Shown: one piece after another, positions 29,170 through 33,036 of the stretch
How positions within the stretch are numbered: position 1 is the stretch's first letter
Layout: every line of letters begins with the position of its first letter
Source: Acinetobacter sp.
GTDB taxonomy: Bacteria > Pseudomonadota > Gammaproteobacteria > Pseudomonadales > Moraxellaceae
DNA: 64,000 bases
Assembly (NCBI RefSeq): GCF_045628685.1
Contig: NZ_JAZQPV010000117.1
Location: forward strand, 9,312 to 73,311
Reading direction: 5' to 3'
Made by a program: the position numbers and the translations under genes
Notes under the pieces: model-generated
Databases searched by the model: none
What the model was told of the DNA's origin: nothing
The model's input: the letters and a program-made list of their open reading frames with translations, nothing else

Positions 29170-30375
29170 TTAAGCAGTTGCTTTAATGACTTCTGCAATA
29201 GACTCCGCGACATAATCAATATTGCTTAAATTTAAGCCCGCAGCACACATACGACCACTACGAACGAGATAGATAGCGTATTGATCTTTTAAGATATCAA
29301 CCTGTTCAGCCGTTAAACCGGTATAGCTAAACATACCTTGCTGTTTGACCAGATAACTAAAGTCACGTTCAGGTAGAGCTTGGCTTAATTTTTCATTCAA
29401 CATTTGACGCATTTTAATAATACGTTCGCGCATTTCAGTCAGTTCAGCTTGCCATTGTGCAGTCAAATCAGCATCATTCAGCACATTATCCACCAACAAG
29501 GCTCCAGTCGTTGCCGGGCTTGAGTAAATACGGCGTACAGTGGCTTTTAATTGACCCAATACTTTTTGAGCAGTGGCTTGATCATCACATACAAATGTTA
29601 AGCCACCGATACGCTCTCCATAGAGCGAGAAAATTTTAGAAAATGAATTGCTGACAATAAAATTCATTCCTACCTCGTCTAAGGCACGAATGGCATAGGT
29701 ATCTTGTTCTAAACCTTGACCAAATCCTTGATAAGCAATGTCTAAAAATGGAATCAGATCCTGTTTTTGCAAGACTTCAATCACTTGATCCCATTCAGCC
29801 GTTGTTAAATCGGCACCTGTCGGGTTATGGCAACAAGGGTGTAATAGCACAATACTTTTTGCCGGTAGCTGGCTCAATTTTTCAAGCATCGCGAGCACAT
29901 TGACGCCATTGGTTGCTGCATCAAAATAAGGATAGAAATGCGTGTGAATACCAGCACCATTAAAGATAGCAATGTGATTTTCCCAAGTCGGTTGGCTGAC
30001 CCAAACATCAGATTCAGGAAAATATTTTTTAAGAAAATCTGCACCGACTTTTAGTGCACCTGAACCGCCCAAAGTTTGAATGGTCACAGCACGTCCATCA
30101 CGACATGCCTGGCTTTCTTGTCCCAAAACGAGAGCTTGAGTGGCTTGGTTATAAGACTTCAAACCATCCATCGGTAAATAGAGCTTGACCTGATCATTGC
30201 TCGCTTCAATATTTTTATAAGCCGCTTTAACGGCATTGAGTTGAGGAACAATATTGTCTTCATTGTAGTACAAGCCAATACTTAGATTAACTTTATGAGA
30301 GCGTTGGTCTTTTCCAAACTCTTCCATCAGAGAAAGAATCGGATCTCCTGCATAAGTATCAACATGTTGAAACAT
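29170..30375 (-). CDS. Aromatic-amino-acid/aspartate aminotransferase (AspC/TyrB family)
   Basis: 401 aa from [14 protein letters not shown]; [19 protein letters not shown]-lysine motif. Confidence 0.9.
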
Positions 30376-30407: not shown

Positions 30408-31320
30408 TCAAGCCTTCTGAACAAATCGCATTTTATCTTTTAATGCCAATTGAGGGTCGGTTATTTTTTTATTTTTAAAATAATAGGCAATCGACAGAAA
30501 GCTAATCCAGATAGGAATCGTCATCACAGCACTGCGCATATCTGGAGTTTGGCTCATAATCAGAAAAATGCCGCACATAAAGATAATGTAGATATAATTT
30601 GTAAAAGGATAGGCAATACTTGGAAATTGCGTCGATGCATTTATCGCGATCTTATGTTTCTTAAATTTCAGATGCGTATATAAAATGATCACCAAGTTAA
30701 TCACAATTGCTGCAATCATCAGGCTAAACGCTTTTTAAAGCTTAAAACCGTCGCGACGGTTTGACTGCCTAGCAAGTCAAAGATCAGCACAAAAGGACTC
30801 CATTTGATTCCATGGATAAAGCGACAAAATAATCACCAGACTTAATATATAAAATAACAGGACCCGATACACAATCTGGTTGATGGCTTTAGGTGAGGTT
30901 TTTTGCGGATTATCCGTTTCTGTAGCGGCAATGCCGACCAATTCAATGTTACCAAAAGCAAATATAATCATCACCATTGCCATGACCAATCCCATAACAC
31001 CATTCAGGAAGAAGCCGCCTAATTCCCATAAATTTTGCAGACTCGATTGTATGTCACCACTTCCAGTTGCGAGTAAATAACTGCTAAAAGCAATCATGGC
31101 CAGTACTTTAATAATGGCGAGCCAAAACTCCATTTCACCAAATAATTTAACGTGTAAAAGATTAATCATATTGATGAAAATAAAGAATCCCAGTGCAGAA
31201 ACCTAAGTCGGAATTCCCGGCCACCAGTAATGAATATAAAGACTAATCGCGCTGAGTTTCGCCATACAGACCAGAATATTCAAAACCCAGTAATTCCATC
31301 CAGATATCCGTAATTGTTTT
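30408..31320 (-). pseudogene. aroP: Decayed aromatic amino-acid permease (APC family, AroP-like)
   Basis: Fragments align to AroP as I recall it (SGWNYWVLNILV...WWPGIPT*VSALGFF...FGEMEFWLAIIKV...; SPFVLIF in a shifted frame; C-terminal MIAAIVINLV...HLKFKK). The lesions are 5' truncation, in-frame TAG at 31203-31205, a frameshift near 30790 and an internal deletion near 30740. Confidence 0.8.
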
Positions 31321-31599: not shown

Positions 31600-31628
31600 T
31601 TGTCAAATGTATGAATACAGCGTATTTT
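31600..31628 (+). promoter_or_regulatory. Candidate sigma70 promoter for the aromatic leader/DAHP synthase transcript
   Basis: TTGTCA, 17-nt spacer, TATTTT; the spacer contains the palindrome TGTAtgaaTACA (31608-31619). Confidence 0.3.
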
Positions 31629-31663
31629 AATTTTAAGACACATACTTTTTTGAAGAAATAAAG

Positions 31664-31720
31664 ATGTTAAAGCAACCAGTCATCTCAAACGTACGTTATT
31701 ATTTTTGGCAATTTAGATAG
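31664..31720 (+). CDS. Leader peptide 1, aromatic-codon rich (MLKQPVISNVRYYFWQFR)
   Basis: 18 codons with the run Tyr-Tyr-Phe-Trp-Gln-Phe just before the stop, followed directly by alternative helices and a terminator. Weak Shine-Dalgarno. Confidence 0.6.
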   Translation: MLKQPVISNVRYYFWQFR

Positions 31721-31767
31721 TTGCCTGAACGCGTTCGGGCAAGAAATGGTTGCCCACCAAGTTTTAT

Positions 31768-31799
31768 AACCTGATCGGCAACCCTGATCAGGTTTTTTT
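31768..31799 (+). terminator. Attenuator terminator upstream of the DAHP synthase gene
   Basis: Stem aacctgatc/gatcaggtt (core 31770-31776 with 31786-31792), 9-nt loop, seven T residues 31793-31799. Confidence 0.75.
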
Positions 31800-31834
31800 A
31801 TACTTTATTTTTTATACATTTTTGGAGTTACTTC

Positions 31835-31939
31835 ATGAAAACATTAAATTACTCATATTTTAGCAACTCTTATTGGTTTTATTTTAGTCAAGTAATGACT
31901 TTTGCCTCGCAATCCATTAGACCCATAACGCTCAAATAA
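31835..31939 (+). CDS. Leader/upstream ORF 2, aromatic-codon rich (MKTLNYSYFSNSYWFYFSQVMTFASQSIRPITLK)
   Basis: 34 codons; GGAG 7 nt upstream of the ATG; 8 aromatic residues within positions 6-17; stop 35 nt before the DAHP synthase ATG. Confidence 0.55.
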   Translation: MKTLNYSYFSNSYWFYFSQVMTFASQSIRPITLK

Positions 31940-31974
31940 AAGATTGGACTGAAAAAAGTCCTCAGGAAAGACCA

Positions 31975-33036
31975 ATGAATGCTTTAAATAATGCTTTACA
32001 ACAAATGCAAACGACTGTAAACGAAACCATTTTAAGTTTGCCTCATCAATTGAAGGCACAATTGCCTTTATCAGCAAAATTAGCTCAACAAATTGCCGAG
32101 CAGCGTCAAACCATTCAAAACATTTTAGATGGCAAAGATCATCGTTTGATGGTGATAACAGGTCCATGTTCAATTCACGATCCTATCTCTGCACTTGAAT
32201 ATGCTGAAAAATTAAAACAATTACAATGCCAAGTCGCTGATCAAATTTTTCTGGTGATGCGAGCATATATCGAAAAACCACGTACCACCATTGGCTGGAA
32301 AGGTTTTCTGTATGACCCAAATTTAGATGGTTCATCAAATATGCAATTGGGCTTAGAAAAATCACGCGAGTTATATTTACAAATTATAGAAATGGGGTTG
32401 CCCATTGCCTCGGAAATTTTAAGCCCGATGGCGACTGCATATTTCGATGATTTACTGACTTGGGGCGCAATTGGTGCACGTACCAGTGAATCGCAAATTC
32501 ACCGTGAAATTTCAAGCCATATGCCGTACAGCATTGGGTTCAAAAATGGCACAGATGGCTCTATTCAAATTGCACTTGATGCTATTCAATCGGCTACACA
32601 TCCACATCAATTTTTAGGCATGAGTCAGTCAGGCTTACCATGTATTTTAGAATCTAAGGGCAATCGCAAAGCACATTTGATTTTACGCGGTGCAAATTCG
32701 GGGCCTAACTACGCATTGGCTGAAATTGAGAAAATTAAAGAAAAAGCCAAGGATGAATTGCCGGCTTTAGTGATTGACTGTAGCCATGGTAACAGCCACA
32801 AAAACCCATTATTACAACCCGAAGTTTTGCGTACCATTGTGGATGAACGCACACAAACCCATGTTCGTGGCGTGATGTTAGAAAGCCATCTGGTCGATGG
32901 TCAGCAAAAGATTTCTTGTGAAATGACCTATGGTCAATCTATAACAGATGGTTGTTTAGGTTGGGATAAAACACAACAAATTTTACTGGAGGTTACCAAT
33001 TCTCTACGCGTTGCTCAATTAAAGCGTAGTGCTTAA
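31975..33036 (+). CDS. 3-deoxy-7-phosphoheptulonate (DAHP) synthase, class I (AroF/G/H type; isozyme not assignable by eye)
   Basis: 353 aa with GPCSIHD, KPRT and IDCSHGNS motifs. Confidence 0.95.
   Translation: MNALNNALQQMQTTVNETILSLPHQLKAQLPLSAKLAQQIAEQRQTIQNILDGKDHRLMVITGPCSIHDPISALEYAEKLKQLQCQVADQIFLVMRAYIEKPRTTIGWKGFLYDPNLDGSSNMQLGLEKSRELYLQIIEMGLPIASEILSPMATAYFDDLLTWGAIGARTSESQIHREISSHMPYSIGFKNGTDGSIQIALDAIQSATHPHQFLGMSQSGLPCILESKGNRKAHLILRGANSGPNYALAEIEKIKEKAKDELPALVIDCSHGNSHKNPLLQPEVLRTIVDERTQTHVRGVMLESHLVDGQQKISCEMTYGQSITDGCLGWDKTQQILLEVTNSLRVAQLKRSA

Follow-up and report, generated by a model that had tools for sequence, protein, structure and literature searches.

Candidate ribosome-sensed attenuator with two aromatic leader reading frames upstream of the class I DAHP synthase gene in Acinetobacter, and its kinship with the Pseudomonas RNA P15

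What controls the entry point of the shikimate pathway in Acinetobacter? The enzyme at this point is 3-deoxy-D-arabino-heptulosonate 7-phosphate (DAHP) synthase, and the control of its expression outside the enterobacteria is poorly described. The question is raised by a stretch of 64,000 nucleotides (nt) from Acinetobacter sp. (NCBI RefSeq assembly GCF_045628685.1, contig NZ_JAZQPV010000117.1, positions 9,312 to 73,311 of the forward strand), referred to here as the window, to which all positions below apply. In it, a short open reading frame (ORF) rich in tyrosine, phenylalanine and tryptophan codons and an intrinsic terminator precede a class I DAHP synthase gene, and an earlier note, made from the letters of this DNA, had read them as a transcription attenuator. 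The analysis reported here points with good confidence to a ribosome-sensed transcription attenuator through which expression of DAHP synthase follows the charging of tRNA-Tyr, tRNA-Phe and tRNA-Trp and most likely rises when aromatic amino acids run low. A second aromatic leader ORF was found between the terminator and the gene, and a like tandem arrangement stands before the orthologous gene of Pseudomonas-type genomes, its 5' half there being the RNA filed in Rfam as P15.

The gene downstream of the element scores 476.8 bits against NCBIfam NF009395 (cut-off 343), which bears out its earlier naming as class I DAHP synthase. No forward-strand gene ends upstream of the terminator, so the terminator sits within a 5' leader. 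The element was followed in 80 species-level Acinetobacter loci, to which the loci of A. baylyi, A. calcoaceticus, A. junii and A. seifertii were added; a first homolog search had returned close relatives only, and re-centring it on A. soli brought in A. baylyi and members of the calcoaceticus-baumannii complex. The Moraxellaceae are represented in this sample by Acinetobacter only, with Psychrobacter and Moraxella outside it. The nearest related locus is that of Acinetobacter sp. TSRC1-2, in which the protein encoded by the downstream gene is 94% identical. Flanking genes vary between Acinetobacter lineages and the element is kept, so it travels with the DAHP synthase gene.

The first leader ORF (leader 1) was found in the sequence as the earlier note had placed it, and so were the RNA segments A, B, C and D and the tract of seven T residues that follow it. 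Its regulatory codons are Tyr12, Tyr13, Phe14, Trp15 and Phe17, five aromatic residues among the last seven (ending YYFWQFR). The conservation of these codons, which the earlier note had left to be checked in relatives, is complete in the sample: every one of the 79 fetched Acinetobacter loci that reach far enough upstream has leader 1, as have the four added ones (83 in total), its length is constant at 18 codons in 55 distinct sequences, and in an alignment on the Trp codon the five core positions are aromatic in 55/55 of these. Within this frame the nucleotides move, with TAT/TAC and TTT/TTC exchanges, Tyr/Phe swaps and a stop codon that may be TAA, TAG or TGA. Leader 1 thus bears the coding signature of codon-level selection for aromatic residues, as read from the aligned sequences.

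Could such an ORF have arisen by chance in AT-rich DNA, beside an ordinary terminator and with no regulation at all? TTT and TAT are common in such sequence, and dinucleotide shuffling of the intergenic region produced an ATG-started ORF with at least five aromatic residues in seven, F, Y and W included, 19 times in 2000, or about 1%. Two such ORFs appeared in the same shuffle once in 2000, and the window has two: leader 1 and the second leader described below are the sole ATG-started ORFs of this kind on either strand of its 64 kb. There is no upstream forward-strand gene for the terminator to end, the whole unit is conserved throughout the genus, and relatives occur in Pseudomonas-type genomes. 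A chance origin is effectively refuted by the conservation evidence.

The RNA that follows the aromatic codons is organized as a chain of mutually exclusive helices. The fold of 31630-31810 has a z-score of -3.85, and none of 200 shuffles folded as well. Alternating GGCAA and TTGCC words occur five times in 91 nt, where 0.33 would be expected (Poisson P about 2.5e-5), the densest such cluster in the window. A segment that the earlier note had missed, here segment 1, lies over the leader codons themselves and completes the chain 1:2 / 2:3 / 3:4 / 4:5 / terminator, in which segments 2 to 5 correspond to A, B, C and D (Table 1). Helix 1:2 is present in the minimum free energy (MFE) structure of the free RNA with a probability of 0.95; all of its alignment cells (100%) are paired, and the CAA/CAG variation and the variation around the stop codon are compatible with pairing throughout. 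The A:B hairpin exists and shows covariation (G:C to A:U in six sequences, with 12 G:U intermediates), although the ten pairs originally drawn would leave a 2-nt loop and are impossible, and nine form. The terminator proved stronger than had been stated, with its stem extended to 11 pairs, of which 99.7% of cells are paired, with one compensatory change (U:A to G:C in the locus L076) besides G:U intermediates. For A:B and the terminator together, 97.8% of cells are paired, compared with 23-51% when the partners are slid. The compensatory changes for which relatives were to be searched are accordingly present in these two structures, whereas the B:C and C:D helices are invariant and covariation is silent on them. 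Segment D, described earlier as the terminator loop, covers the whole loop and also the top two pairs of the stem.

Between the Trp codon and the T-tract hardly any nucleotide differs across the genus, and this stretch is more conserved than the adjoining protein-coding gene, the DAHP synthases of the same species differing by 25-30% in amino acid sequence. Such conservation is expected where several helices overlap, and the invariance of the terminator loop, unusual for a terminator, fits a pairing role for D. The terminator stem is likewise almost invariant across the genus, which is unusually rigid for such a stem, and carries GATC in both arms (CCTGATCGG and CTGATCAGG, 31768-31794). An additional GCAACC copy further upstream (31672-31677) can pair with segment C in the free RNA. 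It lies where the leader 1 N-terminus MLKQP is replaced by MLNLS or MLNQS in the calcoaceticus-baumannii complex (A. calcoaceticus, L082; A. seifertii, L084), and is therefore not essential.

Ribosome positions were modelled by masking the corresponding footprints. In the full transcript at equilibrium the terminator forms with a probability of about 1 in every state, so that any switch has to be a kinetic one, like that of the trp operon; the modelling was moved to nascent transcripts ending at 31783-31790 after equilibrium folding had failed to discriminate. On these, a ribosome stalled on Tyr12-Trp15 (masked to 31715) leaves A:B and C:D formed with a probability of about 1.0, and with the ribosome moved to the stop codon (masked to 31732) B:C has a probability of 0.79 while the terminator nucleates; over the modelling runs masked to 31732 the value for B:C was 0.79-1.0. 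In the free RNA helix 1:2 forms and termination follows. The logic proposed in the earlier note was thus reproduced on nascent transcripts by folding with and without masked footprints. Footprint masking is a thermodynamic model only, and kinetic discrimination is inferred.

The proposed course of events is as follows. Transcription would start near 31635 from a conserved sigma-70 promoter. Were a ribosome to stall at Tyr12-Trp15, it would cover segment 1 and leave segment 2 open, A:B (2:3) would form, and C (4), left free, would capture D (5) at the terminator apex before the 3' arm of the terminator is made, letting RNA polymerase read through. A ribosome that reaches the stop codon would cover A, so that B:C (3:4) forms, D stays free, the 11-bp terminator folds, and a transcript of about 165 nt ends at the T-tract. 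With no ribosome, 1:2 and 3:4 would form and transcription would again terminate.

Several observations weigh against this account. Leader 1 has no canonical Shine-Dalgarno (SD) sequence, being preceded by an A-rich 5' untranslated region only, and the terminator prevails at equilibrium whatever the position of the ribosome. B:C is almost invariant in 59 sequences and the C:D core GUUGCC:GGCAAC is too, so that covariation speaks neither for nor against either helix, and the outermost C:D pair is broken in 8/59. C:D shares only two stem pairs and the loop with the terminator, whose 5' arm stays free. It may exclude the terminator sterically, as a pseudoknot in which a 2-nt linker would have to cross a 7-bp helix. 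The kinetic switch, the role of C:D as the antiterminator and the response to amino acid supply are therefore given here as predictions, and our confidence in the exact antiterminator is lower than that in ribosome-sensed attenuation as such. As a whole, the attenuator proposed in the earlier note stands on the coding signature of its ORF, a promoter, the covariation of A:B and the terminator and the footprint modelling; its C:D step is a deduction, and the note had overlooked segment 1 and the second leader.

The extreme invariance of the helix block could also reflect another constraint, such as a bound factor, and it has to be asked whether a protein or small-molecule effector binds the GGCAA/UUGCC block and the aromatic ORF goes untranslated. 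The near-invariance of the block beside enzymes differing by a quarter or more of their residues and the missing SD of leader 1 would suit such an effector. The ORF, however, keeps its length, start, stop and aromatic identity while its synonymous sites vary, and the overlapping alternative helices already account for the invariance; moreover, the Pseudomonas relatives keep aromatic codons and an SD despite different helix sequences, and a permissive Rfam scan of the element returned no riboswitch or protein-binding leader family. An effector of this kind is held to be very improbable.

Table 1 Features of the DAHP synthase leader region in the window (SD, Shine-Dalgarno sequence; TIR, translation initiation region)
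Feature	Position	Strand	Description	Source or energy
Sigma-70-type promoter	31600..31628	+	-35 TTGTCA (31600-31605), 17-nt spacer, -10 TATTTT (31623-31628)	promoter scan
Leader ORF 1	31664..31720	+	MLKQPVISNVRYYFWQFR, 18 codons and stop; ATG 31664, stop 31718-31720	
Segment 1	31707..31713	+	GGCAAUU, over Trp-Gln-Phe codons; pairs with segment 2 (AGUUGCC, 31719-31725)	
Hairpin A:B (segments 2:3)	31721..31742	+	UUGCCUGAA/UUCGGGCAA, 9 bp; A 31721-31730, B 31733-31742	
Helix B:C (segments 3:4)	31737..31755	+	GGGCAA/UUGCCC	-9.6 kcal/mol
Helix C:D (segments 4:5), candidate antiterminator	31748..31783	+	GGUUGCC/GGCAACC, 7 bp	-9.8 kcal/mol
Intrinsic terminator	31768..31799	+	11-bp stem, 31768-31778 with 31784-31794; loop CAACC; T7 31793-31799	-14.7 kcal/mol
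Leader ORF 2	31824..31939	+	MKTLNYSYFSNSYWFYFSQVMTFASQSIRPITLK; strong SD GGAG (31824-31827), ATG 31835, end 31939	aromatic run 31850-31885
Candidate anti-TIR segment	31862..31880	+	Ser-Asn-Ser-Tyr-Trp-Phe codons	MFE pairing with DAHP synthase start
Hairpin P	31946..31961	+	GGACU-loop-AGUCC, from leader 2 stop to DAHP synthase SD, abutting the SD	RNAalifold
Class I DAHP synthase gene with SD	31964..33036	+	SD AGGA (31964-31967), ATG 31975, 353 aa	NCBIfam NF009395

The promoter from which the leader is predicted to be transcribed, with a start near 31635, is conserved. The pattern TTG.C[AT]-17-TA...T was found in 53/61 distinct Acinetobacter upstream regions, ending 31-38 nt 5' of the leader 1 ATG, and the remaining eight have TTGTAA or TTGAAA at the same -35 place. 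The invariant columns of the -10 hexamer are the canonical T1, A2, T3 and T6, and the 17-nt spacer is invariant as well. No TyrR-type operator (TGTAAA-N6-TTTACA) was found at the promoter, where the only match has three mismatches and overlaps the -35 hexamer, and the DNA 5' of the -35 is not conserved among the Acinetobacter loci; a TyrR operator at the promoter was rejected on these grounds. The sole one-mismatch match to the operator in the 64 kb window, TTTAAATAATGCTTTACA (31983-32000), is coding sequence and spans DAHP synthase codons 3-9 (NALNNALQ); many species share part of the match, GCTTTACA, which is likewise coding.

Is the element confined to Acinetobacter? The only match in the permissive Rfam scan was to RF00627, the Pseudomonas small RNA (sRNA) P15, at 31693-31794 with 23.0 bits and an E-value of 0.023 in a search over 1 kb, below the RF00627 gathering threshold of 70 bits, so that by the Rfam criterion the window element is not a member. 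Posterior probability in the alignment is high at the Tyr-Tyr-Phe-Trp codons and at the terminator; the P15 helices H1 and H2 and its terminator map onto 1:2, B:C and the terminator of the window. The RF00627 model itself starts inside leader codons (UUU UAU UUU GGG UAU UGG UUU AGC CAC UGG CGC GCC UGA). A metagenome scan with the P15 terminator core yielded 120 loci, in 72 of which a DAHP synthase homolog lies 190-350 nt downstream on the same strand; these enzymes have 50-60% identity and belong to the same subfamily, NF009395, and the loci sampled score 87-114 bits on RF00627. Their first ORF ends in ...[FY]Y[FY]FGYWFSH[WR]RA, about 50-60 nt 5' of the terminator, and the next ORF (MNYATYYRYD...AWRF..., or MNRYYRNYRYDWRFS...), the second, begins some 70-90 nt past the start of the terminator hairpin, followed in order by a GC-rich hairpin at the same position as hairpin P, an SD and the gene. 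The terminator apex UCGGCAACCC is common to Acinetobacter and some Pseudomonas-type P15 lineages. In the converse direction, about 50 P15 elements are matched over their full length by R1, a covariance model of the Acinetobacter element, with E-values of 5e-5 to 0.07 in 614 kb, values that are rough because the calibration was short.

These correspondences indicate that the window element is a diverged relative of P15 and that the tandem-leader design predates the split between Acinetobacter and Pseudomonas, as judged by comparison of the sequences. In the locus L120 (4146-4620) and about 70 others (within L085-L204), RF00627 begins within the leader ORF, which ends in FYFGYWFSHWRA-stop, and downstream of P15 there is always another aromatic ORF and then DAHP synthase. 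RF00627 looks like a mis-typed cis-regulatory leader.

The classification of RF00627 in Rfam as an sRNA gene supplies a further explanation, in which the unit from promoter to terminator is primarily a trans-acting sRNA and the short ORF is incidental or secondary. In P. aeruginosa PAO1, P15 lies 221 nt upstream of a same-strand gene of 1092 nt, and an RNA of about 180 nt was detected in exponential and in stationary phase (Livny et al. 2006, PMC1524904). A discrete RNA accumulating in both phases suits an sRNA, and about 180 nt is the size expected of the terminated leader. The downstream gene in PAO1 is taken to be PA2943, in part on the size of 1092 nt in the table of Livny and colleagues. 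Attenuator-derived RNAs can also act in trans, as is reported for rnTrpL of Sinorhizobium (PMC6614838). Against a primary sRNA role stand the constant position of the element, on the same strand and directly upstream of orthologous DAHP synthase genes in two bacterial orders whatever the neighbours, the codon-level selection for aromatic residues in the ORF, and the start of the Rfam model inside the FYFGYWFSHWRA-stop of the leader ORF. The sRNA explanation is therefore considered improbable, with room left for a secondary trans role. The Rfam entry for P15 presumably mentions the DAHP synthase neighbour and gives the function as unknown.

Modelling of the first attenuator of L120 gave, at one transcript length, an antiterminator-like fold with the ribosome stalled and at the stop codon alike, and is not decisive. 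In the apical antiterminator of P15-type loci only two loop bases were free to vary, most of the terminator having been fixed by the scan pattern; changes at these bases are not matched in the partner strand, and the P15 leader shows the same invariance.

What becomes of an RNA that has escaped the terminator? It carries leader 2, which has a strong SD and is present in all 84 Acinetobacter loci with a conserved core, Y-F-(S/N)-N-x-Y-W-F-Y-F. No intrinsic terminator follows it, as no U-tract was found after hairpin P in Acinetobacter or in Pseudomonas-type loci. Its codons are used one-sidedly, the Tyr before Trp being TAT in 58/58 and the Phe codons TTT in 165 cases against TTC in two, in contrast to codon 14 of leader 1 (TTT 26, TTC 19). 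This bias implies a constraint at the RNA level beyond coding, and it fits a pairing of UAU with the invariant AUG. In the MFE structure of this region, 31870-31880 (UUAUUGGUUUU) is paired with 31968-31978 (AAGACCAAUGA, the spacer and AUG of DAHP synthase) and 31862-31865 with 31980-31983. When a 30-nt footprint was slid along the RNA in 31 species, the predicted accessibility of the SD/AUG region rose (by 0.20) only with the A-site between -5 and +6 codons of the Trp codon, and not with the footprint at the leader 2 stop codon; the partners predicted for the SD/AUG region were the Y-W-F-Y-F codons. Compared with shuffled translation initiation regions (TIRs), the duplex of leader 2 core and TIR has a z-score of -3.06 in the window and a mean of -2.04 over 35 species, 24 of which lie below -1. 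The start codon stands in the context CCAAUG, complementary to UAUUGG, in 22/55 distinct TIRs; a background test for CCA before ATG was set aside, as the DAHP synthase genes themselves had contaminated it. The cells of the anti-TIR helix are paired in 83% of cases, compared with 33-51% when slid, with little covariation. P15-type loci show a weaker footprint effect (+0.05 to 0.07 within about six codons of Trp, 26 loci) and a mean anti-TIR z-score of -0.84, and in some of their lineages the pairing is strong (UGGCG:CGCCA next to AUG, z = -1.4 to -4.4).

Leader 2 may on these findings be a translational attenuator, a proposal we hold tentatively, its support being moderate and not universal. 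The whole mechanism of this second step is a model: in most lineages the Tyr-Trp-Phe codons of the read-through RNA would pair with the spacer and AUG of DAHP synthase, and a ribosome stalled in leader 2 would free that start, as one that has run to the leader 2 stop would not. The following facts count against it. Roughly one Acinetobacter lineage in three, A. lwoffii, A. baylyi and A. junii among them, has anti-TIR complementarity near zero, and the pairing is absent from a Pseudomonas group with 50 codons; the leader 2 region as a whole folds no better than shuffles (z = -0.63); and the only consensus helix that RNAalifold returned in that region is hairpin P. Hairpin P has compensatory changes at three of its five pairs (L076, AGACGC/GCGUCU, and L064). 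An AGUC/GACU alternative to it was dropped, since L076 alters hairpin P with no matching change in the leader.

Leader 1 may equally act as proposed while leader 2 works by a route other than unmasking of the start site, among them Rho-dependent polarity, coupling of transcription and translation over the 175-nt gap, termination and reinitiation via hairpin P, or mRNA stability. Such a route is unlikely, though it cannot be called remote: the anti-TIR pairing is not universal, and hairpin P and the block GCUCAAAUAAAAG round the leader 2 stop are more conserved than it is; the distance from the stop to hairpin P would let a terminating ribosome melt the 5' arm of the hairpin; leader 2 is rich in C and poor in G over its distal half, like a rut site; and the C-terminus of the peptide, R-[TP]-x-x-[LP]-x-stop, is alike in both lineages. 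Yet under Rho-dependent polarity starvation should lower expression, the opposite of what is wanted, the two lineages, though unrelated in sequence here, both show the opening of the SD/AUG region around the Trp codon, and the usage of TAT only and TTT only fits pairing with the invariant AUG. A near-invariant block, GCUCAAAUAAAAGAU (31925-31945), surrounds the leader 2 stop and includes third codon positions, and the leader 2 C-terminus R-P-I-T-L-K-stop resembles those of Pseudomonas-type loci (RTPQ, RTLS or RTPR, then stop). The context in which leader 2 terminates may matter.

Two further features related to aromatic amino acids lie on the reverse strand of the window. Two ORF fragments (30408-31169) match residues 140-264 and 366-449 of the aromatic amino acid permease AroP and adjoin an aromatic aminotransferase gene (29170-30375). 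The aroP of the window looks like a pseudogene, and the closest relative (L001) is likewise without a long ORF in the corresponding 1.3 kb.

Taken together, leader 1 gating transcription and leader 2 translation would make a two-tier ribosomal sensor on DAHP synthase in Acinetobacter, Pseudomonas and relatives, older than the separation of these lineages; the combined reading is put forward as a possibility rather than as the expected outcome. If it is true, the Tyr-Trp-Phe codons of leader 2 are themselves the strand that masks the start codon of the enzyme, the charging of aromatic tRNAs is read twice with a multiplicative response, and the Rfam 'sRNA' P15 is the terminated product of the device and not an independent sRNA gene. 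The element would explain how pathway entry is matched to three end products with one gene and no repressor in Acinetobacter, the A. baumannii-calcoaceticus complex included, and a function would be assigned to a 20-year-old orphan Rfam family in Pseudomonas. It would also be a natural example of two serial ribosome-sensing leaders, one transcriptional and one possibly translational, of use for aromatic biosensors and strain engineering. One prediction is that defects in tRNA modification (MiaA, acting on tRNAs that read UNN codons) derepress DAHP synthase, which bears on a recent P. aeruginosa study that considered only trpL.

The class of mechanism is textbook, and what stands out is the tandem dual leader, the depth of its conservation and the reinterpretation of P15. 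Within the literature covered, which is incomplete, nothing was found on the element in Acinetobacter, nor any paper calling P15 or PA2943 a leader-peptide attenuator; the only leaders named in a 2026 study of P. aeruginosa attenuation are trpL1 and trpL2. Reconstructions of Proteobacteria regulons give no aromatic regulator for DAHP synthase in Moraxellaceae, and the DAHP synthase genes of Escherichia coli are controlled by the TyrR and TrpR repressors (PMC5343134).

Among known systems, trpL, pheL-pheA, pheM-pheST and hisL share with the proposed attenuator a short codon-rich ORF, overlapping helices, an intrinsic terminator and the position of the ribosome as the signal, and in the classical enterobacterial attenuators, too, the lack of translation leads to termination. 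The Acinetobacter element differs from these in having five or six segments rather than four, in a predicted antiterminator that takes the apex and loop of the terminator and not its whole 5' arm, in its mix of codons for three amino acids, in controlling the entry enzyme of a common pathway, and in a second leader in series. Multivalent leaders are familiar from ilvGMEDA (Ile/Leu/Val) and thr (Thr/Ile), where one leader likewise serves several amino acids that share a pathway; the amino acids and pathways are others there, and the leaders are single.

The earlier note regarded a three-aromatic leader on a DAHP synthase gene as an unusual design, and that view was overstated: an aromatic leader on such a gene has a published precedent, and the element has a relative. 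In Corynebacterium glutamicum the aroR leader peptide (Phe-Tyr-Phe) attenuates the aroF DAHP synthase operon with a reported response to Phe and not to Tyr, according to the account of Neshat et al. (2014) given in a later paper (PMC11802643). Both systems place an aromatic leader peptide before a DAHP synthase operon. Compared by description, aroR belongs to another phylum, and in that second-hand account no Trp codon is reported and no tandem second leader described. The relative is P15. Like the Acinetobacter element, P15 directly precedes, in the same orientation, an orthologous gene for class I DAHP synthase (NF009395) and has its parts in the same order: an aromatic run (FYFGYWF, compared with YYFWQF), a helix that pairs these codons with the stop region, a second helix and a terminator with a related apex (UCGGC..CCC), then a second aromatic ORF, a hairpin, an SD and the gene. 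Its leader 1 has about 40-47 codons and not 18, the Acinetobacter helices are AT-rich and of other sequence, and in Rfam P15 is typed as an sRNA gene. For leader 2 alone the likeness is to the translational attenuation of ermC, cat and cmlA, in which a ribosome stalled on an upstream ORF disrupts a helix that masks the TIR. Leader 2 would be triggered by scarce aminoacyl-tRNA and not by an antibiotic, and the masking strand would be the regulatory codons themselves, for which the computational support is not universal among the lineages.

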